The notes under the pieces were generated by a model that saw only the letters and a program-made list of their open reading frames with translations, did no database searches and was not told where the DNA came from. A DNA stretch of 64,000 nt from Candidatus Woesebacteria bacterium (GTDB lineage: Bacteria > Patescibacteriota > Saccharimonadia > Saccharimonadales > EFPC-124): positions 34,211 through 98,210 of the forward strand of contig JASFQB010000006.1 in assembly GCA_050115675.1 (NCBI GenBank), given 5' to 3'. Both the position numbers and the translations under genes were made by a program. Shown here piece by piece: positions 7,966-63,337 of the stretch. Every line of letters starts with the position of its first letter. Within the stretch, counting starts at the first letter, position 1.

Positions 7966-9175
7966 TCTTTACTCCTTTTGACCCATCTGTTGTTTGATGC
8001 ACTGTATATCTTGAAACCTGAAAAGCTAAACCCAACGCCATCATTATAAACAATAAGCTCGTGCCTCCAAAGCTCAAGAACGGCAATGTTACGCCTGTTA
8101 GCGGCAATAGTCCAAGCATCGCACCAACATTTACCACAGCATGCGTAAAGACCCACCCAAACACGCCTGCGATTATTAGTTTGTTGTATTCTATAGTAAC
8201 ATTATCCATGATTTTTAGCAGCCTAAAAAATAGCCCGCCAAAAATTACCAATATTGCTGATGTTCCGATAAAACCAAATTTTTCTGCCACTATGGCAAAT
8301 ATTGAGTCGTTGGCAGCTTCTGGCAGATATCCAAATGCCTGTATACTACGCCCCAACCCTTTGCCCGATACTCCCCCACTACCTATTGCAATTAGCGCTT
8401 GGTTTATATGATAGCCTGAAGAATCATCGCTATCTGAGGCTCCAGAAACAAAAGTTGTAATGCGCTCCATGCGATGTGGTGATGTTAGTGTAAAAATTAC
8501 ACCAGCTGCCAACAACGCTGCGGCTGTCAGTAAAATATACTTTTTATTTAGCCCACCTACGTAAAGCATGATTGCAACAATACCAAACATGGCTATACCC
8601 GTACCAAGGTCTTTTTGCAAGCCAATAATAATTATCGAAACCAACAGCATAAGCATCCCAAGAGGCACCAATGTTTCGTTTACGCTGTTTATCTTGCCTA
8701 GAGAAATCCTGTTCGCCAGAAAACCCGCGACAAAAATTAGTAAAGCAAATTTCAAAGCCTCTGCTGGCTGCAATGTCGAAAACCCCAGGTTAAGCCAACG
8801 ACACGCTCCATTTGTGCACAAAACAAACGAACTGCCAGCAAAAACGATCGGTATTAAACAAAGAATCAATGCACCAACCAAAATTTTGCCCTGATTTTTT
8901 TGCCAAAAGCTAAGCGGAATAAAACTTACTATCAAAAACGCAACTACTCCTGCAAGTAGGTAAAGCAGCTGTTTGTACATAAAGTAATCTTGGCTCAACT
9001 GATTGCCGGCAGCGTTAATGCGCGCGGTTAGCGCTGGGCTAATAGAATAAATTACAATTAGACCCAATAGCATCAAGATGCTCATAAAAAGCACCAGCAT
9101 AATATCCGGACGATGTCGTCTGACAACTTCCGTCGTTGATGCATATGACTGCCGCAGTCTACTGCTTTGGATCAA
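7901..9175 (-). CDS. ftsW: FtsW/RodA (SEDS) family lipid II polymerase/flippase
   Basis: Multi-TM SEDS-like sequence in dcw context. Start set at TTG 9175 overlapping the mraY stop (uncertain). The 3' end overlaps murG by 65 nt. Confidence 0.8.
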   Translation of the reverse strand: MIQSSRLRQSYASTTEVVRRHRPDIMLVLFMSILMLLGLIVIYSISPALTARINAAGNQLSQDYFMYKQLLYLLAGVVAFLIVSFIPLSFWQKNQGKILVGALILCLIPIVFAGSSFVLCTNGACRWLNLGFSTLQPAEALKFALLIFVAGFLANRISLGKINSVNETLVPLGMLMLLVSIIIIGLQKDLGTGIAMFGIVAIMLYVGGLNKKYILLTAAALLAAGVIFTLTSPHRMERITTFVSGASDSDDSSGYHINQALIAIGSGGVSGKGLGRSIQAFGYLPEAANDSIFAIVAEKFGFIGTSAILVIFGGLFFRLLKIMDNVTIEYNKLIIAGVFGWVFTHAVVNVGAMLGLLPLTGVTLPFLSFGGTSLLFIMMALGLAFQVSRYTVHQTTDGSKGVKNEDRSSGRGVRWARNSRIGRN

Positions 9176-10206
9176 TTTATAAATCCTCCTGCAAACGCCA
9201 AAATCACACCCAAAACCGCACAGACCTGGCCAACAACCCAAAACCGCATTGTAACTTTAGTCTCTGGCCAGCCAATTGCCTCAAGATGATGATGTACGGG
9301 TGCAGAAATAAATACTTTACGTTTGAAGAACTTTTTAGAAACAATTTGCACAAGACTAGAACCAGCCTCTAGTACAAAAACAAAGCCAATTACAGGCAAC
9401 AAAAATAGCGAATCTGTTAGCATCGCAACAACACCCAACGCCGTACCCAACGCAAACGATCCTACATCGCCCATAAAAAACCTTGCAGGATAAATATTAA
9501 ACCATACATACGCAAACAGTGCACCAACTACCGTAAAGCAAAAGGCAGCAATTCCAAAATTGCCCTGCAAAGCAGCTATAACTCCAAAAACACCGTACGC
9601 TGTAGATAACAAACCGCCAGCAAGCCCATCTAGCCCATCACTAATATTTACTGCATTCCCCGTACTTACAACCACCAGTACAAACAGTGGTATTAACGCT
9701 AGTCCCAGGGACCAATCACCTACAAATGGTACGTGTATTGTTGTATAGCCTAACTTGTAGTAAAAAAATCCTGCGCCAACCAAAGCCACTAATGTAATCA
9801 TGGCAAACTTTATTGGCGATCTAAGCCCCTTGACTCCCCCGCCAAGACCGCGGATGTTAATATAATCATCAATTAAACCAACAGCACCCGCTGCAACCAA
9901 GGCAGCCAAAGGCAACCAGGTTTGTTGGCGGTCAAGATTAAAAATTAGCGTTATTATGGTGATTGCGGACACCATTATCATACCGGCCATTGTTGGGATA
10001 TTGCGTTTAAATTTTTCTGCGTGCAGCTTTGTAAAAACCGTTAGTTTTTCACCAGTGGTTGATGTTGACCTCTGTTGTTTCCAAAATTTATAACGATAAG
10101 CAAAAAATGTATAAAAAGGCGTAAGTAGCATTGCCACGCAAAACGTTAAAAAGCTAAGCGAAAAAAGTAGCGTTGCCTCTTGAGTTAACTGTTGAATAGA
10201 AAACAT
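9172..10206 (-). CDS. mraY: Phospho-N-acetylmuramoyl-pentapeptide transferase MraY
   Basis: NISDGLDGLAGG, MGDVGSFALG, PVHHHLE motifs; TGA stop. Confidence 0.9.
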   Translation of the reverse strand: MFSIQQLTQEATLLFSLSFLTFCVAMLLTPFYTFFAYRYKFWKQQRSTSTTGEKLTVFTKLHAEKFKRNIPTMAGMIMVSAITIITLIFNLDRQQTWLPLAALVAAGAVGLIDDYINIRGLGGGVKGLRSPIKFAMITLVALVGAGFFYYKLGYTTIHVPFVGDWSLGLALIPLFVLVVVSTGNAVNISDGLDGLAGGLLSTAYGVFGVIAALQGNFGIAAFCFTVVGALFAYVWFNIYPARFFMGDVGSFALGTALGVVAMLTDSLFLLPVIGFVFVLEAGSSLVQIVSKKFFKRKVFISAPVHHHLEAIGWPETKVTMRFWVVGQVCAVLGVILAFAGGFIN

Positions 10207-20490: not shown

Positions 20491-21429
20491 ATGAGCGTCT
20501 GCTATTTTGAATCGCTAAAAATATCAAACAAACTTTTATGCAAAGAGATTGCAAATCATTTAAAATTCCGCCAGCACCTTGGCAAAGCTATCGTAGTATG
20601 CGAAACTCCTAGCACCTTGCTTGGCACAACGCGCAAACAATGGTTAAAACTAGCACGCAGTGTACAAAACGAAAGATCTGCCACTATCAACGCAGAACGG
20701 TTATTGCGTCTAACTAATGCCATAACACACATGCATAAAATGCAATTCATTGCCAAAACACCAATGCAATCACAAAATGCTCACGTTTATTTTATTGATC
20801 CAAAAGATCTAGAAGAAGCAATACTACCAGTAAACACATACAGTTTTTACATAACTTGTCCGATAAACAAAGAATTGCTTAATCACTGCATAGAGCAATT
20901 ACCCTCTAACGCTATGATAGTAGATTTTTCTAACTCAATTACAGACCATTCAGAAACACTAAAACCAAAATCAAAGCTTGAATCACAGGTTTTTAAATAT
21001 TGGAGTGAAGTCGAGACATTTCTTGATAGACATAAAGTTGACATTACAAAGCTTACAAATCGCAACAATCAACAAATTGAAGCAATTAACGACGCACTAG
21101 ATACCCTACTAGACGCAGACTATCATTTTTTACAGCTTGCCAGCGCCTTTCAGCATCAAGTAGAACTTGCGCAGCCACTATTACTTGATCCCGAAATGCA
21201 ACGCCAATACGACGTCTTGATGTTACTTGCTCATCGAGTTCAAACGCTAAGCCCAAGCTCACTTGCGGCCAAATTTACACACAACCTAAACGACGATGCC
21301 TTCTTTTTGCACGACATCAGTTTGGAGTTCGAAGAAGATTTACTGCCAATTTACGAGACAATCGAGCACCACAAAAAGGCCGGGCGCAATCGCCTTGCAC
21401 GCGCACTTACCTTTGCGATGTCACATTAA
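20491..21429 (+). CDS. Hypothetical protein (312 aa, no recognisable motif)
   Basis: Long uninterrupted ORF; ends 6 nt from the convergent DUF4868-like gene. Confidence 0.6.
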   Translation: MSVCYFESLKISNKLLCKEIANHLKFRQHLGKAIVVCETPSTLLGTTRKQWLKLARSVQNERSATINAERLLRLTNAITHMHKMQFIAKTPMQSQNAHVYFIDPKDLEEAILPVNTYSFYITCPINKELLNHCIEQLPSNAMIVDFSNSITDHSETLKPKSKLESQVFKYWSEVETFLDRHKVDITKLTNRNNQQIEAINDALDTLLDADYHFLQLASAFQHQVELAQPLLLDPEMQRQYDVLMLLAHRVQTLSPSSLAAKFTHNLNDDAFFLHDISLEFEEDLLPIYETIEHHKKAGRNRLARALTFAMSH

Positions 21430-21435
21430 CCTACC

Positions 21436-22440
21436 CTATGCCCCTGGAGCTTCTTCGGCGGTCTTTAGGGGCTTTTTGCTTCTAATTTCATAGCGCATAC
21501 CAGTCATTTGCGACTCAACATAATCATCGTTTAAAAGATTTACAAAAATCTTTAAATCTTTTTCACTCATAATGATAATTGCACCTTCTTCATCAACCAT
21601 CAGCTCCAGACCAAGCTCCTCGGCTGCCGCAATTAACTCATCTTGTTTTACCAAACCTGGGTCAATAATTTGCAACTTATTAATAAGCGCCTTGTTACCT
21701 TTTACTAAAGACTGCATGTCCATATCGTCCGCAAAACTTAATTTGTAGTGAGCTTCAATTGCGCGCACCTTTTTTTCTGCAATACTAGCTTTTTTAGCGT
21801 TATAACCGAACAACTGCTCTAATTTTGACTGGTTAAACACATACACATCGCCCTCAAGTACCAAAAGTTGATTATCGGACGGAATACGCAGCACGCCTGC
21901 ATCAACAGAAACAAACTTTTGACCCTCAACCATCCAAGCACCTTCGCCTTTTAACAACTGAGCGGACGGCAGCTTTTTAATAACATAAAAATCTTTTTCC
22001 ATTTTTGGGTGACTGCATTTTGCCACAATTCCACGCATACGCTTAAGGTCGTGATCTTCTTCAAATTGCTCAATTGCATGTTGGTGGGTTTTTAGCCAAT
22101 TTATAACATCTGACAACTGATCAACTCGCCTAACCTGAGTTTTTTGCAAAACGTTTTGTTCGCTTTCTGCCTCCTCAAACCCTCTAACCAGTAGCCCGGT
22201 CTGTGCACCATCTAAAACATATTCCATCAAGCCATCAATAAACAAAGGCTGCAGTTGTTTTTCAAGATCGCCCTGCAATTTTACGCCATATACAACATTA
22301 TTTTTATTTAACAGATACAAATCAATTTTAAGTTCTTCTTTGTATTCAAAAAGGTTGTTTGCCCATGTAAAAACATCAGTTTCTTGCTCTTGCTGGGCTT
22401 GTGGCTGTGATAATGGTTCCATATTGCTAATAAACTCCAA
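21436..22440 (-). CDS. DUF4868 / KwaB-like protein (tentative)
   Basis: Size (~330 aa) and C-terminal pattern VYVFNQSKLEQLFGY..KALINKLQII..IFVNLLNDDYVESQMTGMRYEIRSKK resemble my memory of DUF4868. Start uncertain (TTG 22440 or ATG 22422). Confidence 0.5.
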   Translation of the reverse strand: MEFISNMEPLSQPQAQQEQETDVFTWANNLFEYKEELKIDLYLLNKNNVVYGVKLQGDLEKQLQPLFIDGLMEYVLDGAQTGLLVRGFEEAESEQNVLQKTQVRRVDQLSDVINWLKTHQHAIEQFEEDHDLKRMRGIVAKCSHPKMEKDFYVIKKLPSAQLLKGEGAWMVEGQKFVSVDAGVLRIPSDNQLLVLEGDVYVFNQSKLEQLFGYNAKKASIAEKKVRAIEAHYKLSFADDMDMQSLVKGNKALINKLQIIDPGLVKQDELIAAAEELGLELMVDEEGAIIIMSEKDLKIFVNLLNDDYVESQMTGMRYEIRSKKPLKTAEEAPGA

Positions 22441-25741: not shown

Positions 25742-26416
25742 TTACTCATCTAAAGCCCTAGCTAGCCACAAACAGTCTCCAATGACCTGCCCCAGCCCGC
25801 TCACCTGTCGTAAAACAGCCGGATTTTTTGCCTGAATTAACCTTAAAAACTTTATATGATCGGCTATAAACTTGCCATTTTGACACTGTTCAAAAGCCAT
25901 GTCGTCAAAACTAAAATTATACTTTTGATCCACTTCTAATTTTTTGTCATCTGTTGATGTGCTTAAATTTATACTCCTACCCAGTAAAGCGCCAAGCTGA
26001 AGCCTAAACCACAGCTCCACAATGCAATGATCAATAGCAAGCTCATCTAAATAGACAAAAGAATCTCGCAAAAGATAATAAAAATCAGCCTCTGCTACGG
26101 TTTCTGTAGCCTTATTTACGATTTTTATCAAATCATAGCCAAGCTGCATACGATCATAATCGCTTAAAACATTTTTATAAAACCTGATTAAACGAGCGGA
26201 TGCTATCAGCCCCATCTCGCCCCGACCCTCAATTATAGTAACGTTGCTTGTTGCAAAAAGCTCCAGCCCGCCGGCCAGCTTACTTTTACTTTTACGGACA
26301 CCTTTAGCAATTGCGCTAATCTTACCATAATCTGGCGTCAGTAAACTTAGCACCCTGTCTGCCTCGCCATAATTTGTACGCCTTAAAATTATTGATTCTG
26401 TTTTATGAGTTTTCAT
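25742..26416 (-). CDS. recO: DNA repair protein RecO
   Basis: ESIILRRTNYGEADRVLSLLTPDYGKISAIAKGVRK N-terminal OB-fold signature. Confidence 0.85.
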   Translation of the reverse strand: MKTHKTESIILRRTNYGEADRVLSLLTPDYGKISAIAKGVRKSKSKLAGGLELFATSNVTIIEGRGEMGLIASARLIRFYKNVLSDYDRMQLGYDLIKIVNKATETVAEADFYYLLRDSFVYLDELAIDHCIVELWFRLQLGALLGRSINLSTSTDDKKLEVDQKYNFSFDDMAFEQCQNGKFIADHIKFLRLIQAKNPAVLRQVSGLGQVIGDCLWLARALDE

Positions 26417-26780
26417 CTATCGTCTCGGCAATAGCTTTAATTACGTCTTTAGGTTTTATTGTTGCTTTATCAAGAATTTTAGCCACTCCATAGTAACGCA
26501 AATTTTCTAATGTTACATCTTGTGGCAAAGTATTGCTAAAAATTATTGCAGGAATATCCGCCAAATCGTAATTAGATGCCAACTCATGCAATAACTGAAT
26601 TCCATTTGCCCAAGGTAGCATTAAATCAAGCAAAATAACGTCTGGCTTTTTTTGATCAATCACTTCTATTGCATCATAGCCATCACGTCGCCAAACCACA
26701 TTGAATCCGCCCTTACCTAAAACATTGCAGTACAGCTCACCAAGCCATGCCTCGTCTTCTACTAAAAGAACTGTATTCAT
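26403..26780 (-). CDS. Stand-alone response regulator receiver domain (CheY-like, no output domain)
   Basis: LLVEDE ... PDVILLDLMLP phospho-acceptor pattern; 125 aa only. Confidence 0.8.
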   Translation of the reverse strand: MNTVLLVEDEAWLGELYCNVLGKGGFNVVWRRDGYDAIEVIDQKKPDVILLDLMLPWANGIQLLHELASNYDLADIPAIIFSNTLPQDVTLENLRYYGVAKILDKATIKPKDVIKAIAETIDENS

Positions 26781-27529
26781 AATAAACTTAGCTGCTTTGA
26801 CTGAATTAAATCAACATGAAACGCAGCACCTTTATTTACCGCGCCTACGCTTAGCGCCCCACCCATAGCCTGCGCCATTTGGCTGGCAATATACAAACCT
26901 ATTCCACTATTGCCAGACCGACCCTGCATTGGCTGTAAAGTTTTTCCAAGACTACTGCCTAGCCTGCGAATATCTGCCAAGGTTAATCCAGGGCCGTTAT
27001 CACGCACGCTTGCTCTAACGCGGGCGTTACGCCGCCGAATTTTTACATCCACATCAGTTTGTGGTGGATTATGCTTAATTGCGTTGTCTATCAAATTTAT
27101 AAACACACCTCGTAGCAGATCGTTGTTTCCTACCACTAGCTGTGGCGAGGACGGCGCGCTAAAATTAATTTTTTGATCACAAGCCTTCGCTAGCGGCATT
27201 ATTTCGTGCATAGCCTCTTGGCAAACCTGACTAACGTTCACTGGTTCCATTTCAAAACCAAAATCTAGTTGGTCGCAAGTATTCAACCTATGACTTATCG
27301 TTAAGCCCTGCACTAAATTTAACGTCCTTCCGGCCGAAAGTCTGATTCGCTGCAAGGACTGTTTGCGATCGATTGGACTAGCTTGCGTCAAATCGTCTTC
27401 TAAACTACTCGCAAGATGCAGAATAATTGCCAACGGGGTTTTAAGCTCATGAGCAACAGCAACCAGCCCATCAATAGGGCCGCTGCCAGGTGTAATCTGG
27501 AAGTTCGACTGTTTTTTACCCTCACTCAT
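26777..27529 (-). CDS. Histidine kinase (DHp plus HATPase only, no TM or sensor domain)
   Basis: H-box AHELKTPLA, N-box LIDNAIKHN, DNGPGL, GIGLYIA; start taken at MSEGKK. Confidence 0.8.
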   Translation of the reverse strand: MSEGKKQSNFQITPGSGPIDGLVAVAHELKTPLAIILHLASSLEDDLTQASPIDRKQSLQRIRLSAGRTLNLVQGLTISHRLNTCDQLDFGFEMEPVNVSQVCQEAMHEIMPLAKACDQKINFSAPSSPQLVVGNNDLLRGVFINLIDNAIKHNPPQTDVDVKIRRRNARVRASVRDNGPGLTLADIRRLGSSLGKTLQPMQGRSGNSGIGLYIASQMAQAMGGALSVGAVNKGAAFHVDLIQSKQLSLL

Positions 27530-27575
27530 TTGTACTAAAAGTTTAGCACAAACCGTGCCAGGCAAGCACAATCGT

Positions 27576-33249: not shown

Positions 33250-33627
33250 TTATACACCCAAATGGTGCTTGATTTTATCTACAACGTCTCCAATGACGAC
33301 CTGAGATTTGATTAAATACTCATCAACCCCTAGTTGTTCTGCGCGCTCTTTGTCTTTTGCCTGACTCAAGGCTGTTAGCATAATAATTTTTACGTTCATT
33401 GTTTCTGGTGTATTGCGCAGAATATCTAGCACATCAAAGCCTGTAATTTTAGGCATCATAGCATCTAAAACAATTAAATCTGGCCTAAATGTTACCGCGG
33501 TAGAAAGAGCATCCTCACCATTGATAACATGTTTTACATCGAACCCCTCTAACTGCAGACGCGAAATATAAACATTTGCTAGCGCGCTGTCATCTTCAAC
33601 AAGTAGTATCTTTTTCTTTGGATTCAT
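33250..33627 (-). CDS. Stand-alone response regulator receiver domain (CheY-like)
   Basis: ILLVEDD, PDLIVLDAMMP, IIMLTA, K-containing C-terminus; 125 aa. Confidence 0.8.
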   Translation of the reverse strand: MNPKKKILLVEDDSALANVYISRLQLEGFDVKHVINGEDALSTAVTFRPDLIVLDAMMPKITGFDVLDILRNTPETMNVKIIMLTALSQAKDKERAEQLGVDEYLIKSQVVIGDVVDKIKHHLGV

Positions 33628-49957: not shown

Positions 49958-50407
49958 ATGAAAGTAAGAATTTTAGCACGCGCAGTAACACACGACTCAA
50001 AAAAAAAGCAAATTTTGCTAGTAAAAAATAAAGGGGCAAATTTTTGGTACGCACCCGGCGGCGGCTGGGAATACGAGCACGAAACAATTAAGCAATGTGT
50101 CGTGCGCGAGGTTTTAGAAGAGACAGGTTTAAATGTAAAAATTCAAAGATTGCTTTACATGCAGGAATTTCACGAGTCCGAGCAAACCATATTTTTTGAA
50201 ACCTTTTGGCTAGCCAAACCTACACACAACCAAACATTAAATAACATGCACATTGACCAAAACGGTATTGTAGAAACCGCAAAATGGTTTAATCAAAAGC
50301 AAATTCAAGATGTAAAAGTATTTCCTGAGCGATTAAAAAGTAGTTTTTGGCATGAACTAGAACATAATATTAGCATTACGGAAGATCCCTTTATCGGAGT
50401 AAGTTAA
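49958..50407 (+). CDS. NUDIX hydrolase
   Basis: Canonical Nudix box GGGWEYEHETIKQCVVREVLEETGL. Confidence 0.85.
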   Translation: MKVRILARAVTHDSKKKQILLVKNKGANFWYAPGGGWEYEHETIKQCVVREVLEETGLNVKIQRLLYMQEFHESEQTIFFETFWLAKPTHNQTLNNMHIDQNGIVETAKWFNQKQIQDVKVFPERLKSSFWHELEHNISITEDPFIGVS

Positions 50408-50412
50408 TCGTT

Positions 50413-51555
50413 ATGGATTTAGTTTATCTATTAATCTGCGCGATATTTTTTGTAATATCAAGCAAATGGATCATTAGCATCTTTTCTGCTCGTAAATGGA
50501 TAGTGCAGGAAACAAAAAATACAGAAAAAGTCGCATTTAATCATAAACCAATTTTTGTTTTGATACCCGTTTTGGCAGAGGTTGATAGAATACAAAAAAC
50601 TGTGAGCTATTTCTTGGATACATTTAGCGGCAGGATAAACATTAAGATTGTACTCATAACAACTGAAGCCGAATATAAATATAAATTCGCTGGACCAAAT
50701 ACTATCGACATCTGCAAACGTCTAGCTCGCCAAAACAATAACAGAATCTTACATGTTCACTATCCGAAGAACAACGGTAGGATGTCGCATCAACTAAATT
50801 TCGCAATAACCAAACTTGGTAATATACTTGAGCCTGATTCTTTATTAACAGTGTATAACGCCGACTCAAAACCACACCCATTAACATTTGACTGGGTGCT
50901 TCAAAAACGCGTTCATGATCCAACGCAACAGATATTTCAACAGTATGGAGATTATACAAAAAATATTAACGGCAAAACAAATGGCATTCTTCTTTCTGCT
51001 GCATTGTGGCAGAATCGTTGGGCGCTTGGATTTGAATTGTCAAAAGTCCTGCGATCAATTCCAAATGTCAATAATAATTATCTTCTACGTCCATTAAATT
51101 ATGTTATTGGCCATGGACTTTTTATGACTCGCAATTTTTACGATCAATCCATCGGGTTCTCTGAAATATTTCATAATGAAGACGCCATATTAGGGTTAGA
51201 GATATCTTTTCTCAGACAAAAAATTATGCCCCTTCCATTCTTTGACGTATCTGACACACCCGACACAATTCGATCTTTATACACCCAAAAGATTCATTGG
51301 TTTTTTGGGCCCTATCAAGCATTTAAGTACTTTTCGTTTTTGTTAAAAAAATATCAAAATTGTTCTTTAATGGACAAGATAACTCTTGCGCTGCAATCCT
51401 TTAAGCTATTTGCACACGCAATATACTGGGTAGCAGGACCATTTTTTATATTATTCTTATTAGTTTATCCGCTAACTACGCGTAATTTACTCTATATCCT
51501 TGCAGGATATTCATGTTTTATTGCTTTTTTGTCTTACCAAACTATCTATCAATGA
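50413..51555 (+). CDS. Glycosyltransferase family 2-like membrane protein (possibly continues to 51731 after a frame change at a T6 tract)
   Basis: IFVLIPVLAEVDRI N-terminal GT-A pattern, YNADS acidic motif, C-terminal TM segments; AT-rich. Confidence 0.5.
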   Translation: MDLVYLLICAIFFVISSKWIISIFSARKWIVQETKNTEKVAFNHKPIFVLIPVLAEVDRIQKTVSYFLDTFSGRINIKIVLITTEAEYKYKFAGPNTIDICKRLARQNNNRILHVHYPKNNGRMSHQLNFAITKLGNILEPDSLLTVYNADSKPHPLTFDWVLQKRVHDPTQQIFQQYGDYTKNINGKTNGILLSAALWQNRWALGFELSKVLRSIPNVNNNYLLRPLNYVIGHGLFMTRNFYDQSIGFSEIFHNEDAILGLEISFLRQKIMPLPFFDVSDTPDTIRSLYTQKIHWFFGPYQAFKYFSFLLKKYQNCSLMDKITLALQSFKLFAHAIYWVAGPFFILFLLVYPLTTRNLLYILAGYSCFIAFLSYQTIYQ

Positions 51556-51727
51556 TATTGAGCGGAAAAGAAATTAATCATTTTATAGTTATAATAAAAT
51601 TATGCACAGGCGGCCTTGCGTGCTATATAATGCACGGGGCATCAGCTATATCGGCAGTAGTATTATCAATGAAACATTTTTTACTACATGAATCAATCGC
51701 AAAAGGCAAAACAGAAATGAAAAATAA

Positions 51728-52270
51728 ATGATATATTTAATCGGCGGAGTCTCTCGTTCTGGCAAATCATCAGCCAGAAAGCATCTACTAGACACATTCA
51801 AAATATCTGGAATTGAAACAGACTCGCTAAGAACAACTCTGGAAATTTCCATGCCAGAACTCGGTATACATCATAAAAACACTCCATCAACTAATGCTAT
51901 ACTAATGCGTCCTTATGTTGAAGCTTTTATACAATCAAGGTCGTTCTTTAATGATGATTTTGTTATTGAAGGAGATTGTATAACCCCGGCCACAGCAAGA
52001 AAATTTGCGAATACTCAAGATATAAAAACAGTATTCATTGGCTACCCCAAAACTACCGTTAATCACAAGTTCAATCAGCTTAGCCAAAAACATGAGGGCT
52101 GGACTGCAAAATTACCTGAGCAAGAATTTAAAAGAATAATCGATATTTTCATAAAAGATAGCATAATATTACAAGCAGCTTGTCACAACTATAATTTACC
52201 TTTTATTGACAGTTCAGATATGACAATCGAAACAATAGTAGGTCTTACTTGCGCCAAATTAGGGTTGTGA
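51728..52270 (+). CDS. P-loop kinase-like protein (AAA_33 / 2-phosphoglycerate-kinase-like)
   Basis: N-terminal Walker A LIGGVSRSGKSS; ATGA overlap with the upstream frame. Confidence 0.45.
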   Translation: MIYLIGGVSRSGKSSARKHLLDTFKISGIETDSLRTTLEISMPELGIHHKNTPSTNAILMRPYVEAFIQSRSFFNDDFVIEGDCITPATARKFANTQDIKTVFIGYPKTTVNHKFNQLSQKHEGWTAKLPEQEFKRIIDIFIKDSIILQAACHNYNLPFIDSSDMTIETIVGLTCAKLGL

Positions 52271-52277
52271 TTTTATC

Positions 52278-52307
52278 GTCGGGCGGAGGATATAGCCTCC
52301 GCCCGAC
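52278..52307. terminator. GC-rich 12-bp hairpin between convergent genes
   Basis: gtcgggcggagg atatag cctccgcccgac; no U-tract on either side. Confidence 0.45.
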
Positions 52308-52316
52308 AGCATCAGT

Positions 52317-52907
52317 CTAAAATAGCATATAATGGGAGATCGTCTCCACTGTACGTCGATGTATCTCCCTATGAGGCAAAGTGCCATCAAGCACGACCCA
52401 ATTTTGCTCAGCAGCCAATTGATCCATGCGATCTGATAGCGATTGATGATACTCTCTGCCCTTAAGGTCAAAGAAATCAGCACCACGAATCCTGCACCGC
52501 TCCATTGCTATATCAACAGGCACTTTTAGAAGAAATGTAATATCCGCACAAATACCACCAAAAGCAATCTCGTTTAGACGAAAGCGCAACTTTTGATCTG
52601 AAGAGAGAATGCCGTTTTGGCTATGGTACGCCTCATAAGAATCGTCCCACCTATCAGCTAGCACAATCTCACCCCTCTTCAATGCCTTCTCTGCTTTCGC
52701 GCGCTGCTCGGCGTGTAGCGCCTGAAACAAGAACAGCACACCCTCAGGAGTTGCAGTCTCCATAAAAAGAGCAAACAACTCTTTTTCTGCATCACCATAT
52801 GCTTTGCTCATAAAAACTGGCTTATTTTTTGAACGCAGGAAATCAGCAAGATGTCCAAGCTGAGTCCCCTTTCCGCATCCATCAATACCAGTAATATTAA
52901 TAAGCAA
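52317..52907 (-). CDS. Thymidylate-kinase-family (Tmk-like) P-loop nucleotide kinase, divergent
   Basis: ITGIDGCGKGTQ P-loop and ADRWDDSYEAYH resembling the Tmk DRY..S..AYQ motif. Confidence 0.6.
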   Translation of the reverse strand: MLINITGIDGCGKGTQLGHLADFLRSKNKPVFMSKAYGDAEKELFALFMETATPEGVLFLFQALHAEQRAKAEKALKRGEIVLADRWDDSYEAYHSQNGILSSDQKLRFRLNEIAFGGICADITFLLKVPVDIAMERCRIRGADFFDLKGREYHQSLSDRMDQLAAEQNWVVLDGTLPHREIHRRTVETISHYMLF

Positions 52908-52994
52908 CGTTCCTCCCTAAATAGGACTGGATGACTTACACGACAATAGCACTTCTTACCCGCATCTTGCAAACATAAATTACTTCAACACTGC

Positions 52995-53759
52995 CTACGG
53001 GCGCAAAGTCCCCGCAAACACCTGCCAAGCTAGCGCCGATTTAGCCACCAAGCTTAAAACAATATACACTCGCTCGCCGTAAAGATAGTTCTTCCACCTG
53101 CCTATCTGTCGATATTGCAGGAACATATTTACCGCAAAACTATTAAAGAATATGAATATGCTGACATAAATCCAGTATACAAAAGTTGGAATTTGCCCAC
53201 TGCCATAGTTTGCCGCGCCCATTACGTAAATAACAAAAACCAGCCAAGGCGCTAAGCCAGCAATGCAGCCAATTGCGTAACTCAGCCAATTGACCTTTTT
53301 GTTTTTTTGGTTCCAAACTTCCATAACAAGACCCATTAGATTCATAATTGCCACCAAGGCAAAAATCATAATTAGGCTAGATAAATCATAAATTCCACTT
53401 AAAAATGCAATCGCAACCATCATGGTGCTAGCGCTAATTGCGTATTCTACCCAGCGGGCTTTGTTAATGCCTCGCTTTAAATCAGCCTCGTAGCGCCTAC
53501 GATAAACTGTTGCAATTATTAGATGGGCAACAGATGACATTATTAAAAACGAGATTGTTAGCCATGCTAACGAAACCTGAAACACCTGCGAAGTGGTTGG
53601 CTGTAAACTTTGTGAAGCTACGTTATACGTTAAATAACTGGTTGTGACGGGAATTAAATAATCTTTAGCCAACAAAATCACTGCCACTGCTTGACCAGCA
53701 TGCAACAACGCCGCTATTACGTTTAACCTGCGCAACGATTCCATGGTTATATTTGACAT
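52995..53759 (-). CDS. Heliorhodopsin (7-TM retinal protein)
   Basis: Colinear with the prototype 48C12 as I recall it: RWVEYAIS (TM3 Glu, E105), GERVYIVLSLVAKSALAWQVFAGTL (TM7 Lys, K240), His20 and His79, FFNSFA. Confidence 0.85.
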   Translation of the reverse strand: MSNITMESLRRLNVIAALLHAGQAVAVILLAKDYLIPVTTSYLTYNVASQSLQPTTSQVFQVSLAWLTISFLIMSSVAHLIIATVYRRRYEADLKRGINKARWVEYAISASTMMVAIAFLSGIYDLSSLIMIFALVAIMNLMGLVMEVWNQKNKKVNWLSYAIGCIAGLAPWLVFVIYVMGAANYGSGQIPTFVYWIYVSIFIFFNSFAVNMFLQYRQIGRWKNYLYGERVYIVLSLVAKSALAWQVFAGTLRP

Positions 53760-53795: not shown

Positions 53796-54224
53796 TTACA
53801 TCAATTTTGCGTATTCGTATATTACACGCAATGACTGCTTGTTGTTTTCGTATTTCAATATTTGCATGGCGTCTTCAAGCAGTAGCCACTTGTAGTCTTC
53901 GTGTTCTTCACTTAAGACAACTCTACTTTCTGCAGCCACCTCAACAGCATGCAAAATATCTATGCCCTTTCGACCATCTTCGGTTAGCCACTCGCTACGC
54001 ATAAGCTCGTCACTCACATGCAGGTGAATATCTATTCCAACTTCTTCAATAACCTCTCTTATTGCAGCTTGCTTAGGCGTTTCGCCTTCTTCGATTCTAC
54101 CCGTTACCGGCTGCCAAAAAGCACCATCATGCGGAACGCGCTTTATAATTAAAAATTCTATATCGTCACCTCGTCTTCGGTACACCGAGGCCAAGGCGAC
54201 GTTAATGTCGCCTGTTTTTTTCAT
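53796..54224 (-). CDS. NUDIX hydrolase
   Basis: Canonical Nudix box GRIEEGETPKQAAIREVIEEVGI. Confidence 0.85.
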   Translation of the reverse strand: MKKTGDINVALASVYRRRGDDIEFLIIKRVPHDGAFWQPVTGRIEEGETPKQAAIREVIEEVGIDIHLHVSDELMRSEWLTEDGRKGIDILHAVEVAAESRVVLSEEHEDYKWLLLEDAMQILKYENNKQSLRVIYEYAKLM

Positions 54225-54293
54225 ATAATTAAGTATACACCCCTGATGCAGATTTAACCCTAAGTTTGTTACAATTTAAATTACAAATACTAA

Positions 54294-54563
54294 ATGAAAA
54301 TATTATTTTATGAAATGTCCAATAACGCAACGCTGCAAATGACCTCACGTGAGAGCGTAGAGATCGACTACTACCCAGAGTGTCGCGGCATATGGCTCGA
54401 CCGAGGCGAACTAGATAAAATCATTGACCGATCAGGATCACAAAGTCAAAACAACCCACAGCAACAGCAATCGCATGATTCGCGTAATGACGACCATAAA
54501 CATGACGACTACAACAAAAAACACAAAAAAGAGTCATTTTTGGGCGATTTGTTTGATTTTTAA
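54294..54563 (+). CDS. TFIIB-type zinc-ribbon-like protein with degenerate Cys ligands
   Basis: VEIDYYPECRGIWLDRGELDKI and C-terminal FLGDLFDF match the family, but only one of the four expected Cys is present. Confidence 0.5.
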   Translation: MKILFYEMSNNATLQMTSRESVEIDYYPECRGIWLDRGELDKIIDRSGSQSQNNPQQQQSHDSRNDDHKHDDYNKKHKKESFLGDLFDF

Positions 54564-57309: not shown

Positions 57310-59019
57310 CTATACTATCTTTGCAAGTAGTTCTTGATCAGAAAGTAATGATACTTCTTTAGAATCTCGTGCTTTGTATTCAAGCTTGCCTTCTGCAAGA
57401 GTTTTTTCGCTAACTACAACACGACTAGGCAAGCCAATTAGGTCTGCGTCGGCAAATTTTTCACCAGGACGTACATCTCGATCATCATACAAAACAGCTA
57501 CACCTTTTGACTGAAGCTCCTGATAAAGCTGTTCTGTCTTTTGCACCACCTGAGCATTATCACCCAACCGAGCTAAATAAACCTGATATGGCGCAATTGC
57601 TTTTGGCCACACAATGCCGCGATCGTCGTGGCTAGCCTCAACAATAGCCGCCAAAGTTCGCCCAATGCCAATGCCATAACAGCCCATGTAGTATTTTTGC
57701 CGCTTGCCAGATTCGTCTGTAAATTCGGCATCTTGCATCAAATTTGTGTAGTGCCAGCCAAGCTGAAAAATATTACCAACCTCTATGCCACGTTTTTCTA
57801 TTAATTTGCCGCCATTGGGGCCAATTAACCCAGCAGCAGTCATTGCGATATCGCCTTCGACATCTGGTTTATAATCGCGGTCAATATTTACATTTAGCAA
57901 GTCTTTGTGTTTTTTGTTTGCGCCCCCGTAAGAGTTGCAAATTGTACGCAGTGAATTATCGGCAACGATAATTACTTTTTTGCCGCTTTTGCTTTGTTTT
58001 ACAAAGTTTACAGGAGATATAAATCCTGGCTCACTGCTAAGCTCCTCTCGCACTTCATCGTTAGTTGCCATTCGCAGCTCCCATGCATCTGCAAGATGCA
58101 TTAGTTTTATTTCGTTAACGTCCAAATCGCCACGAATCACTGCCAAAATATAACGATCAGTCGCCTCATCGTAATAAAGAACATCTTTTATCTGTTGCCA
58201 CAGTGGCAAATTGTGCAAATCAACACCATCTTGCATAGAGCCATTTCTCACAGCCTCTACCTCGGTCATTTCGACAGCCTCTTGGCCAAGGTTTTTATTT
58301 TCTATTTTAAAGATCGCTACGTCTTCGTGCGCAGCATAGTCGCTACCCTCCTCAATGAAGTAGCGGCTTTCGCCAGCTTCTGCCTGGGCAACAAACTCGT
58401 GGCAATACTCACCACCAATATAACCATTATCTGCCGCGACCACATCTGTTTTTAGCCCAAGCTCATCAAATATCGCTTTGTAAGCGTCCCACATTTTTTG
58501 GTAAATTTCTTTAAACTGAGCCTCTGTACTAAAGCTGTAAGCGTCTTTCATTACAAATTCGCGAACACGCAAAAGTCCACCGCGAGCGCGCATTTCGTCG
58601 CGAAACTTCATAGAAAACTGGTAGATATTAAACGGTAAATCTTTGTAGCTTATGTTAAATTTACGAACCAGATCAACAGCCATTTCTTCAGCAGTTCCAC
58701 CCAGCGCAAACTCTGCCCCGCGTCTATCTTTGACTTTCATCAGCTCAAAGCTAACAGTGGTGGTTCGATTTGTTTCTTCCCATAACTCAAGAGGGTGCAA
58801 AACTGGCATAAGTACTTCTTGGGCACCTGCCGCATCCATGTGTTTTTTTACAATACGCGCAATATTTTCGTGCACTTTTTGCCCAAGAGGCAACATAAAA
58901 TAACGCCCAGCGGTTGATTCGCGTATAAATCCGGCCTGGGTTAGTAGCCTGTGTGAATCAATTTTATAATCCACACCTTCATTCTTGCTTGTTTTGCCAA
59001 AGGCTTTAGACATTCTCAT
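57310..59019 (-). CDS. proS: Proline-tRNA ligase (bacterial type with INS editing domain)
   Basis: Class II motifs (FRDE, GCYGIGIGR), 569 aa. Confidence 0.95.
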   Translation of the reverse strand: MRMSKAFGKTSKNEGVDYKIDSHRLLTQAGFIRESTAGRYFMLPLGQKVHENIARIVKKHMDAAGAQEVLMPVLHPLELWEETNRTTTVSFELMKVKDRRGAEFALGGTAEEMAVDLVRKFNISYKDLPFNIYQFSMKFRDEMRARGGLLRVREFVMKDAYSFSTEAQFKEIYQKMWDAYKAIFDELGLKTDVVAADNGYIGGEYCHEFVAQAEAGESRYFIEEGSDYAAHEDVAIFKIENKNLGQEAVEMTEVEAVRNGSMQDGVDLHNLPLWQQIKDVLYYDEATDRYILAVIRGDLDVNEIKLMHLADAWELRMATNDEVREELSSEPGFISPVNFVKQSKSGKKVIIVADNSLRTICNSYGGANKKHKDLLNVNIDRDYKPDVEGDIAMTAAGLIGPNGGKLIEKRGIEVGNIFQLGWHYTNLMQDAEFTDESGKRQKYYMGCYGIGIGRTLAAIVEASHDDRGIVWPKAIAPYQVYLARLGDNAQVVQKTEQLYQELQSKGVAVLYDDRDVRPGEKFADADLIGLPSRVVVSEKTLAEGKLEYKARDSKEVSLLSDQELLAKIV

Positions 59020-61904: not shown

Positions 61905-61980
61905 TTTTTCTCCTGTACTTTTATAATATCAAAAAATATTCTATAGTTATACTACACCGTTCTTGTATTTGGAGGTAATT

Positions 61981-62601
61981 ATGCGCATTAGCTGTACAGC
62001 TTTTGCTCGCGTCGTTAACCAAGATTGCTACGCTTTGTTACGCAATTCTAGCATGCTGCGAAAAGAAGGTAAGCTAAGACTTGGCCCTGTTGGCGGAGCA
62101 CTACACTGTAATAGCGATCGTCGCCAAAAGCTTATCGATCAGTTTAGCGCACACAGCTTTGAGGGAGAACGCGACCTGAGGTTTCAGATACCTGACAATT
62201 ACGCACCGCACGTAGTCGAATGGTTTGCCAGTCGTGCTGATCGCGAGATGTCCGTTTTGCGAGAGTTTTACGAAGAACTTGTCGAAGAAGAACATATCTT
62301 GTCTGACGAACAAGTATCTTCTGCAAACGAAACATTTTTAGGCTTTGCAAGTATGCGTGGAGCGCCAAAGCCTCGCTACGGCATGGTGGCGACTTTGCGC
62401 CTGTTTGAAGTATACGACGTCACCATCTCTGCAGATGCCATGCAAAAGCTTTTATGTCACGCCAGGCACAAAGACAGAGTCTATTTTGCAACTCAAGCAG
62501 AAATTCGCAACCAGCAGGATCTCGGCGGAGGATATTCTGTCGCAGAAATCGCTCCAGCGCTTGTAGATTTTAGCAACAAGCTAGTCATTCCAAATATTTA
62601 G
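61981..62601 (+). CDS. Hypothetical protein, paralog 1 of a tandem pair (possible divergent Nudix-fold)
   Basis: RBS GGAGG 6 nt before ATG 61981; PVGGAL and REFYEELVEEE separated by ~40 aa; roughly 40 percent identical by eye to the next gene. Confidence 0.65.
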   Translation: MRISCTAFARVVNQDCYALLRNSSMLRKEGKLRLGPVGGALHCNSDRRQKLIDQFSAHSFEGERDLRFQIPDNYAPHVVEWFASRADREMSVLREFYEELVEEEHILSDEQVSSANETFLGFASMRGAPKPRYGMVATLRLFEVYDVTISADAMQKLLCHARHKDRVYFATQAEIRNQQDLGGGYSVAEIAPALVDFSNKLVIPNI

Positions 62602-62608
62602 AGCAAGT

Positions 62609-62635
62609 TTGCCTACCCGTTTTAAGAGTAGGCAA
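62609..62635 (+). terminator. Terminator of paralog 1
   Basis: ttgcctac ... gtaggcaa then ttttg. Confidence 0.6.
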
Positions 62636-62637
62636 TT

Positions 62638-62665
62638 TTGATAATTGACATAAATAATATATAAT
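62638..62665 (+). promoter_or_regulatory. Promoter TTGATA-N16-TATAAT for paralog 2
   Basis: TTGATA 62638-62643, TATAAT 62660-62665. Confidence 0.55.
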
Positions 62666-62704
62666 CAGCTGCAGGTTATTTTTTCCTACATAAGGTGGCT
62701 TGTT

Positions 62705-63337
62705 ATGCGCATTGGCTGTTCGGCATTTGCCCGAATTGCAGACAATAGCACCGATAGTCCTCTCTACGCTCTTACAATCAATCGAGGCAAAGAGCTTAAA
62801 GGCCGGCTGCGGCTCTCGCCACCTGGTGGAGCATTGCAGGCGCACCCAGATGCACGACAATGGCTAGCTGATGAGTTTGGCGCACATAGCTTCGAAAAAG
62901 ACAACGACCTAAGACTTCAAGTTCCTGATCATCAAGTAAGCAATTTTGCAAACTGGTTCAGCAAACAAGAAAGTCGCGAATCAACAGTTTTGGGTGAAAT
63001 GTACGAAGAATTTGTAGAAGAAGAAGGCTTTTGGGACGAATCTGACTTTACGCGCGTCGAAGAAGAGTTTATTGGCTTTTATTGTCTGCGTGTGAAGCCT
63101 AAAAAACGCAACGGATTCCAACCAAAAATACGTTTTATCGAGGTTTACAATTTGTACGTTCCGCCAATGCTCATGCGCAAGCTTCGCGAAGCCGCTGCTG
63201 TTGCAGATGGCAAGCGCCTGTTTTTTGTGAGCAGCAGCGACATTAACTGCAGAGAGAAGACTCAATCCAGGCCTAAAATTACCAGAACAGCTGGATGCCT
63301 ACTGCACCCTAGGCCGCAAATTGTGATACCTTCATAG
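62705..63337 (+). CDS. Hypothetical protein, paralog 2 of the tandem pair
   Basis: RBS AAGGTGG before ATG 62705; MRIGCSAFAR, PPGGAL, GEMYEEFVEEEG colinear with paralog 1. Confidence 0.65.
   Translation: MRIGCSAFARIADNSTDSPLYALTINRGKELKGRLRLSPPGGALQAHPDARQWLADEFGAHSFEKDNDLRLQVPDHQVSNFANWFSKQESRESTVLGEMYEEFVEEEGFWDESDFTRVEEEFIGFYCLRVKPKKRNGFQPKIRFIEVYNLYVPPMLMRKLREAAAVADGKRLFFVSSSDINCREKTQSRPKITRTAGCLLHPRPQIVIPS

Follow-up and report, generated by a model that had tools for sequence, protein, structure and literature searches.

The window analysed here, a stretch of 64,000 nucleotides from contig JASFQB010000006.1, carries the gene of a functional, vertically inherited heliorhodopsin of the Patescibacteria, and the host is probably a member of the Saccharimonadia. 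The coding sequence (52995..53759, minus strand), whose product is hereafter termed HeR, specifies 254 amino acids with seven transmembrane (TM) helices and an extracellular beta-hairpin in loop 1. The open reading frame (ORF) is full length and frameshift-free, with 254 codons running from an ATG start to a TAG stop. By analogy with characterised heliorhodopsins, the protein is most likely a non-pumping, slow-cycling light sensor.

Identity of the gene and its key residues

HeR scores 320.3 bits (E = 9.3e-96) with the Pfam family PF18761 (Heliorhodopsin), for which the cut-off is 26.7, with profile positions 1-242 of 242 covered, and this end-to-end match shows that the ORF is not a chance ORF. 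The NCBIfam equivalog NF038020 ('heliorhodopsin HeR') is reached at 320.9 bits, above its cut-off of 100, and the proposal in an earlier note on this DNA that the gene encodes a full-length heliorhodopsin is thus borne out by both profiles. Assignment to the type-1 rhodopsins was considered and rejected, as there is no match to PF01036 (Bac_rhodopsin) at E <= 0.01 and the residue four positions before the retinal-binding Lys is Ser rather than Asp; TM7 of HeR carries an SxxxK motif in which Ser replaces the Asp of the type-1 DxxxK.

The residues that the earlier note had singled out as key all lie at homologous positions when HeR is aligned to 48C12, the prototype actinobacterial heliorhodopsin (PDB 6su3, 6uh3, 9ljj). 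The motif RWVEY (residues 102-106) contains the Schiff-base counter-ion E105 (codon GAA, 53445..53447), equivalent to E107 of 48C12, and the motif GERVYIVLSLVAKSALAWQVF (residues 228-248) contains, within S236-L-V-A-K240, the retinal Schiff-base Lys K240 (codon AAA, 53040..53042), equivalent to K241. The two conserved histidines are H20 (codon CAT, 53700..53702), which the alignment pairs with H23 of 48C12, and H79 (codon CAT, 53523..53525), which corresponds to H80; all four codons are on the minus strand. In an alignment of 55 sequences, composed of HeR and 54 relatives at 60-93% identity, E105, H79, S236 and K240 are invariant together with most of the residues of the retinal pocket, and H20 is at least 90% conserved.

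A second in-frame ATG is present at codon 6 and serves as the start in one database copy of 249 amino acids. The purine-rich stretch AAAGGCTAGG precedes the first ATG only, not that at codon 6, and the N-terminus MSNIT is common to HeR and its 93%-identical relatives. That the gene specifies a functional heliorhodopsin is, on the whole, close to certain.

The protein is already public. An identical sequence is deposited in GenBank as MGD8374233.1 ('MAG: heliorhodopsin HeR [Candidatus Woesebacteria bacterium]', from a 101,935-bp contig of a metagenome-assembled genome, MAG) and another is present in the Logan assembly of SRR11713588. More than 7,000 homologues are found, the closest named ones being from Patescibacteria, Saccharimonadales and Dojkabacteria, and homologues at 60-69% identity are plentiful in Saccharibacteria MAGs. 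Genomes of the candidate phyla radiation (CPR) have yielded 98 heliorhodopsin sequences, of which the Saccharimonadia account for 80, and SLVAK is one of the motifs that occur most often (Chiriac et al. 2022, PMC9166423). HeR shares with these and with the heliorhodopsins described by Bulzu et al. (2021, PMC8612252) the phylum-level group, the SLVAK motif and membership of a family restricted to monoderms. In contrast to the published cases, where redox-stress genes and histidine kinases occur nearby, no redox gene adjoins the gene in the window and about 25 kb separate it from the nearest histidine kinase. The gene is therefore already known, being deposited and given its correct name by the standard pipeline, and both CPR heliorhodopsins and retinal scavenging have been published before. 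Of the interpretation given in the earlier note, the family assignment and the intact residues stand, as does the window's lack of retinal genes, while the significance it implied does not, as the protein is already in GenBank. The locus represents one more intact heliorhodopsin among the many catalogued in Saccharimonadia-like Patescibacteria, with little import beyond its correct annotation.

Comparison with characterised heliorhodopsins

The HMMER alignment to 48C12 (PDB 9ljj/6su3) pairs residues 6-254 of HeR with residues 9-255 of the prototype, and the colinearity stated in the earlier note is thereby confirmed. The paired key residues (HeR/48C12) are H20/H23, S75/S76, H79/H80, N99/N101, W103/W105, E105/E107, Y106/Y108, M139/M141, W172/W173, S236/S237, K240/K241 and W245/W246. 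H23, H80, E107, S237, K241 and the fenestration residues of 48C12 are thus all matched, although identity to the prototype is only 44%. HeR departs from 48C12 at N138, which is replaced by Val, and at Q213, replaced by Met, and at both positions it agrees with TaHeR, the heliorhodopsin of the Thermoplasmatales archaeon SG8-52-1 (PDB 6is6, 7u55).

TaHeR (6is6) is also the best match among solved structures (E = 3.6e-75), with a global identity of 51% over the full length, and 48C12 (6su3/9ljj) comes second with E about 7e-56 to 7.9e-56. HeR and TaHeR share the counter-ion Glu, the Lys of the SxxxK motif, the Met at the position of Q213 in 48C12 and the fenestration Tyr (Y161 in HeR, Y164 in TaHeR), and the C-terminal segment SLVAKSALAWQVFAGTLRP is identical in both. 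They differ in that the host of HeR belongs to the Patescibacteria rather than to the archaea and in that extracellular loop 3 of HeR is five residues longer. Both TaHeR and 48C12 are non-transporting.

Predicted fold, topology and selection

The AlphaFold2 model built from the 55-sequence alignment has a pLDDT of 92.3 and a pTM of 0.87 and consists of seven long helices, with strands at residues 35-46 and 51-63 forming the beta-hairpin of extracellular loop 1. In Foldseek comparisons the model superposes on TaHeR (6is6) with a TM-score of 0.93 and a root-mean-square deviation of 1.4 A, and on 48C12 (6su3) with a TM-score of 0.89-0.90. Type-1 rhodopsins reach TM-scores of 0.54-0.70 at 7-16% identity, a resemblance at the level of the fold only. 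HeR is accordingly predicted to adopt the heliorhodopsin fold. With loops assigned from the helix boundaries of the model, the N-terminus and intracellular loops 1-3 contain 15 Lys and Arg residues, compared to two on extracellular loops 1-3 and the C-terminus, and by the positive-inside rule this modelled distribution of charge fits the inverted topology, with the N-terminus in the cytoplasm.

The residues that surround a lateral opening in heliorhodopsins are also retained. Mapping from F162, C166, G169, F206, N207 and A210 of 48C12 identifies Y161, C165 and G168 in TM5 and F205, N206 and A209 in TM6 (codons within 53133..53279, minus strand), and all are present. The published rule requires an aromatic residue at 48C12 positions 162 and 206, a small residue at 166 and 210, G169 and N207 (bioRxiv 10.1101/2025.11.27.691015). 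Every motif residue of HeR matches this rule, and the sequence thus predicts a lateral TM5/TM6 opening beside the beta-ionone ring.

Compared to two relatives at 92.5% protein identity, the ratio of nonsynonymous to synonymous substitution rates (dN/dS) is 0.048-0.065 at a dS of 0.6-0.8. A dN/dS of about 0.05 indicates that HeR is under strong purifying selection.

Retinal supply and proposed function

None of the genes expected for retinal synthesis (crt/blh type: polyprenyl synthase, phytoene synthase/desaturase, lycopene cyclase, Blh-type dioxygenase) is found in the window by Pfam, in scans that covered 40 ORFs of positions 1-45169 together with precomputed Pfam matches for positions 42995-63759. 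The remark to this effect in the earlier note therefore holds for the window. No type-1 rhodopsin appears in the same scans. Rhodopsin-bearing Saccharibacteria without blh have been proposed to take retinal from their actinobacterial hosts, and TaHeR is cited as binding external retinal rapidly via an opening in the apoprotein (PMC9296517). The gene in the window fits this published picture of a monoderm-restricted family in blh-less hosts that need retinal from neighbours or hosts.

By analogy, the apoprotein would capture all-trans-retinal made by other organisms via the TM5/TM6 opening, and a protonated Schiff base would form at K240, balanced by E105. Absorption of green light would isomerise the retinal and start a slow photocycle with a long-lived state and no net ion transport, and the light-activated HeR may in turn alter a partner protein in the cytoplasm or the membrane, as do the heliorhodopsins linked to glutamine synthetase, photolyase or an ABC transporter. 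This chain as a whole, from the capture of external retinal through a slow non-pumping photocycle to a light-dependent effect on a partner, is the account that we tentatively favour. Regulatory pairs of this kind have been described for AbHeR and glutamine synthetase, TfHeR and photolyase, and OcHeR and an ABC transporter (PMC9529153, PMC9769723, PMC11109279). As in these operons, HeR lies directly beside a soluble-enzyme gene on the same strand, and with such a neighbour a light-dependent effect of one protein on the other is what would be expected by default. Unlike in these operons, the neighbour is a Nudix hydrolase, and only very close relatives retain the pairing.

Some points weigh against this account. 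The ten recurrent partner classes recognised by Cho et al. (2024) are glutamine synthetase (GS), NAD+ synthetase, photolyase, MerR, TerC, ABC transporter, SDR, alpha/beta hydrolase, DUF2177 and DUF2238, and none of them adjoins HeR, whose same-strand neighbours are the Nudix hydrolase and a Tmk-like protein. For heliorhodopsins as a family, no settled function has emerged. As regards the scavenging of retinal, the negative result covers 64 kb, and a retinal pathway may be encoded elsewhere in the genome.

An extension of the sensor account, compatible with it, is that HeR harvests light with two chromophores, an exogenous xanthophyll at the lateral fenestration serving as a second antenna. The full motif of the carotenoid site is present (Y161, F205, C165, A209, G168, N206); it is reported in 91.3% of heliorhodopsins, for most of which such an antenna has recently been proposed (bioRxiv 10.1101/2025.11.27.691015). 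However, the case made there for carotenoid binding consists of docking and sequence motifs rather than of measured energy transfer, while the same opening was earlier read as the entry port for retinal (PMC9296517). A second antenna in HeR is thus conceivable, and somewhat doubtful.

A different role would follow if HeR physically regulated the Nudix hydrolase encoded beside it, and perhaps the Tmk-like protein, in a light-regulated module that couples light or oxidative stress to the clean-up of the nucleotide pool. The enzyme in question (Nudix142; 142 amino acids, 53796..54224, minus strand) has a Pfam NUDIX match of 63 bits, and the NCBIfam model that it fits best, a NudB-like one, gives 73.7 bits, short of the cut-off of 103. 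Its gene lies upstream of HeR, 36 nt away and in the same orientation, and no terminator-like site intervenes; all four genomes with a heliorhodopsin at about 92% identity or more retain the two together, and other heliorhodopsins regulate the enzyme encoded beside them. Nudix142 is the sole candidate partner to which gene order points. Against such a module stands the poor conservation of the neighbourhood, which was assessed in the 80 best loci from a search in which each GTDB species was represented by one genome (heliorhodopsins 50-66% identical to HeR), by single-sequence phmmer searches against all ORFs and by iterated HMM profiles for divergent copies. A Nudix gene occurs within 8 kb on either side of the heliorhodopsin gene in nine of the 80 loci and directly adjoins it in two (L010, L032), compared to about 1.6 expected by chance given that roughly 1% of the flank genes are Nudix genes; the upstream same-strand slot holds a Nudix gene in none. 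Homologues of the Tmk-like, P-loop and GT-like proteins of the window are likewise found beside the heliorhodopsin gene in none of the 80 loci, and the Tmk-like gene is also absent from close relatives. In the relatives with heliorhodopsins at 68-74% identity (L083-L085) the slot between the lysyl-tRNA synthetase (LysRS) and seryl-tRNA synthetase (SerRS) genes is kept, but other genes stand beside the heliorhodopsin gene and Nudix142 is absent. The pair is stable only among the four genomes at 92-93% identity or more, a divergence so short that plain synteny would suffice to explain it. Also, the window contains four Nudix genes in 64 kb, a density well above the approximately 1% among the flank genes of the 80 loci, which further weakens any inference from a Nudix gene adjoining HeR. 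Glutaredoxin/GSHPx, histidine kinases and the ten operon partners are what surveys in the literature record beside heliorhodopsins, and neither Nudix hydrolases nor thymidylate kinases are among them. A nucleotide-sanitising module of this kind is improbable, and so is the proposal that Nudix142 and HeR represent a new heliorhodopsin-partner class of this genus-level lineage, in which light would modulate the hydrolysis of damaged or signalling nucleotides. If true, the effect on the Nudix hydrolase would resemble that which other heliorhodopsins have on glutamine synthetase and photolyase.

Transport of protons by HeR, whether light-gated or light-driven, as in the viral V2HeR3, is also very unlikely. 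Some heliorhodopsins of the viral subfamily are reported to transport protons (PMC12873467). This transporting subfamily lacks the fenestration motif (10.1101/2025.11.27.691015), and since HeR has it, proton transport is not to be expected; in addition, the closest solved relatives are TaHeR and 48C12, and there is no viral context around the gene. A decaying or chromophore-less relic, kept by chance in a host unable to make retinal, would agree with the lack of retinal and carotenoid genes in the window, but it is excluded for practical purposes by the purifying selection, with dN/dS of about 0.05 at near-saturated synonymous divergence, and by the invariance of K240, E105, H79 and the pocket residues across the 55 sequences in an undisrupted, full-length frame.

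Gene neighbourhood and a strain-variable block

HeR is situated in a conserved housekeeping slot, in which the genes for prolyl-tRNA synthetase (ProRS), GreA and LysRS lie on one side, and those for SerRS, HPF and SecA on the other, of HeR and a set of variable genes. Read in the direction of HeR, the order is LysRS, a small ORF, a Zn-ribbon gene on the opposite strand, Nudix142, HeR and the Tmk-like gene, followed on the opposite strand by genes for a P-loop protein, a small ORF, a GT-like protein and a second Nudix hydrolase (Nudix149), and then by DUF2207 and, further on, SerRS, HPF and SecA. The Tmk-like protein (196 amino acids, 52317..52907, minus strand), which starts at TTG behind a GGGAGG ribosome-binding site 87 nt downstream of HeR, matches Pfam Thymidylate_kin at 73 bits and TIGR00041 at 77 bits, the latter just below the dTMP-kinase cut-off of 83.25; it also has a weak Pfam match to 5-hmdU DNA kinase. 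The P-loop protein (180 amino acids, 51728..52270, plus strand) has a Walker A motif and matches no family. The earlier note had described the surroundings as consisting entirely of nucleotide-handling enzymes, and of these the two Nudix hydrolases and the Tmk-like protein are confirmed, while the supposed P-loop kinase is supported as far as its Walker A motif and by no family match.

Nudix142 and HeR are probably co-transcribed, to judge from their spacing. An AT-rich intergenic region (54225..54293) separates Nudix142 on the minus strand from the divergent Zn-ribbon gene on the plus strand and is a candidate, inferred only, for the Nudix-HeR promoter. Consensus scans for promoters and terminators around HeR, including 54225-54293, gave nothing above shuffled expectation, and no terminator-like hairpin was found by such a scan between Nudix142, HeR and the Tmk-like gene; the operon structure therefore rests on spacing. 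The Rfam scan of the whole window identified no RNA family.

The Zn-ribbon protein (89 amino acids, 54294..54563, plus strand; Zn_ribbon_TFIIB) contains one cysteine followed by a tail rich in Gln, His, Asp and Lys. Its gene is divergent from Nudix-HeR, an arrangement kept in all close relatives (L082, L086 and a JGI contig). A link to the published Znf-HeR fusions was considered and rejected, as the domain is Zn_ribbon_TFIIB and not zinc_ribbon_4 and has a single cysteine.

The genes on the other side of HeR are less stable. The layout of the window recurs in one JGI contig. In L082 (heliorhodopsin 92.5% identical, 93% in the homologue search) the order is Zn-ribbon, Nudix, heliorhodopsin, Nudix149 and DUF2207, and the blastn homology to this locus breaks at position 52996 of the window and resumes at 50400. 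In L086 (92.5%) the heliorhodopsin gene is followed directly by DUF2207 after the same Zn-ribbon and Nudix genes, and window positions 50091-52993 have no counterpart. Between HeR and the second Nudix gene there is thus a block of 2.6 kb (50401..52994), comprising the genes of the GT-like protein (380 amino acids), a small ORF, the P-loop protein and the Tmk-like protein, which is present in the window and the JGI contig and absent from L082 and L086. The lack of the Tmk-like, P-loop and GT-like genes in these two relatives identifies the block as strain-variable. Its G+C content is 0.376, compared to 0.422 for the window, with 0.35-0.37 in its plus-strand genes. By these sequence comparisons the block is a variable insertion outside the HeR system, and the adjacency of HeR, Nudix and Tmk-like genes, on whose conservation the earlier note had wanted a check, fails both across the 80 loci and, for the block, in relatives with heliorhodopsins at 92.5% identity. 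Being strain-variable, the block makes the nucleotide-enzyme neighbourhood unfit for inferring the function of the heliorhodopsin. A reading of the block as a defence island drew from PADLOC no more than a weak PDC-M51B match of the Tmk-like protein, at 41.5 bits, and Nudix matches of a generic kind.

Of the neighbours that HeR has in the window, only the housekeeping genes (ProRS, GreA, LysRS, SerRS) recur beside the heliorhodopsin gene in the 80 loci. Blind clustering of the four neighbours on either side, with labels taken from inspection of representative sequences rather than from Pfam scans, yields a thioredoxin-reductase-like cluster in 11 loci (mostly at +2), a cupin-like cluster in 10, a thermonuclease-like cluster in 10 and a protein of 178 amino acids in 11, always immediately upstream and on the same strand. 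No counterparts of these four largest clusters are found beside HeR in the window. As a candidate partner, the 178-amino-acid protein may be more promising than any encoded in the window. In L085, whose heliorhodopsin is 69% identical, the LysRS-SerRS slot holds two tandem heliorhodopsins of 267 and 306 amino acids (8001-9784).

Host organism

The 80 best loci are mostly from MAGs labelled Saccharibacteria or Saccharimonadales; Dojkabacteria contribute a few, and Methanomassiliicoccales are represented at about 51% heliorhodopsin identity. LysRS and SerRS of the window are 72% and 62% identical, respectively, to those of Saccharibacteria-labelled MAGs, with which the gene order is also shared. 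On these sequence comparisons the host is most likely a member of the Saccharimonadia, and the deposited label 'Woesebacteria' is doubtful.

The ProRS of the window (57310..59019, minus strand; 569 amino acids) is of the bacterial type with a tRNA_edit domain and is just 33-40% identical to the ProRS in the same syntenic position of related Saccharibacteria loci. Set against the identities of LysRS and SerRS, this suggests that ProRS has been replaced. Among these related loci, at least L084 has a ProRS of an archaeal-like type with ProRS-C_1, and L085 has a class I instead of a class II LysRS in the same slot.

Other features of the window

Two tandem Sa_NUDIX genes, encoding about 206 and 210 amino acids, are located at 61963..63337 on the plus strand. 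A histidine kinase and an adjacent response regulator (26403-27571, minus strand), as well as a second, orphan receiver-domain protein (33250-33627, minus strand), are encoded 20-27 kb from HeR, and at this distance cannot be counted as the linkage of heliorhodopsins to histidine kinases known from the literature.

At 21436-22440, the minus strand encodes a protein resembling KwaB of the Kiwa defence system (Pfam KwaB 56 bits, PADLOC KwaB 65.6 bits). No KwaA is recognisable beside it, the adjoining convergent ORF of 312 amino acids (20491-21429, plus strand) matching no family. Near the start of the window, a protein of 920 amino acids (1477-4239, plus strand) combines TrwB/VirD4-type coupling-protein and HerA-like ATPase domains and is preceded by a sigma-70 region 4/HARE-HTH protein (357-1433). 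This region may be what is left of an element for conjugation or type IV secretion.

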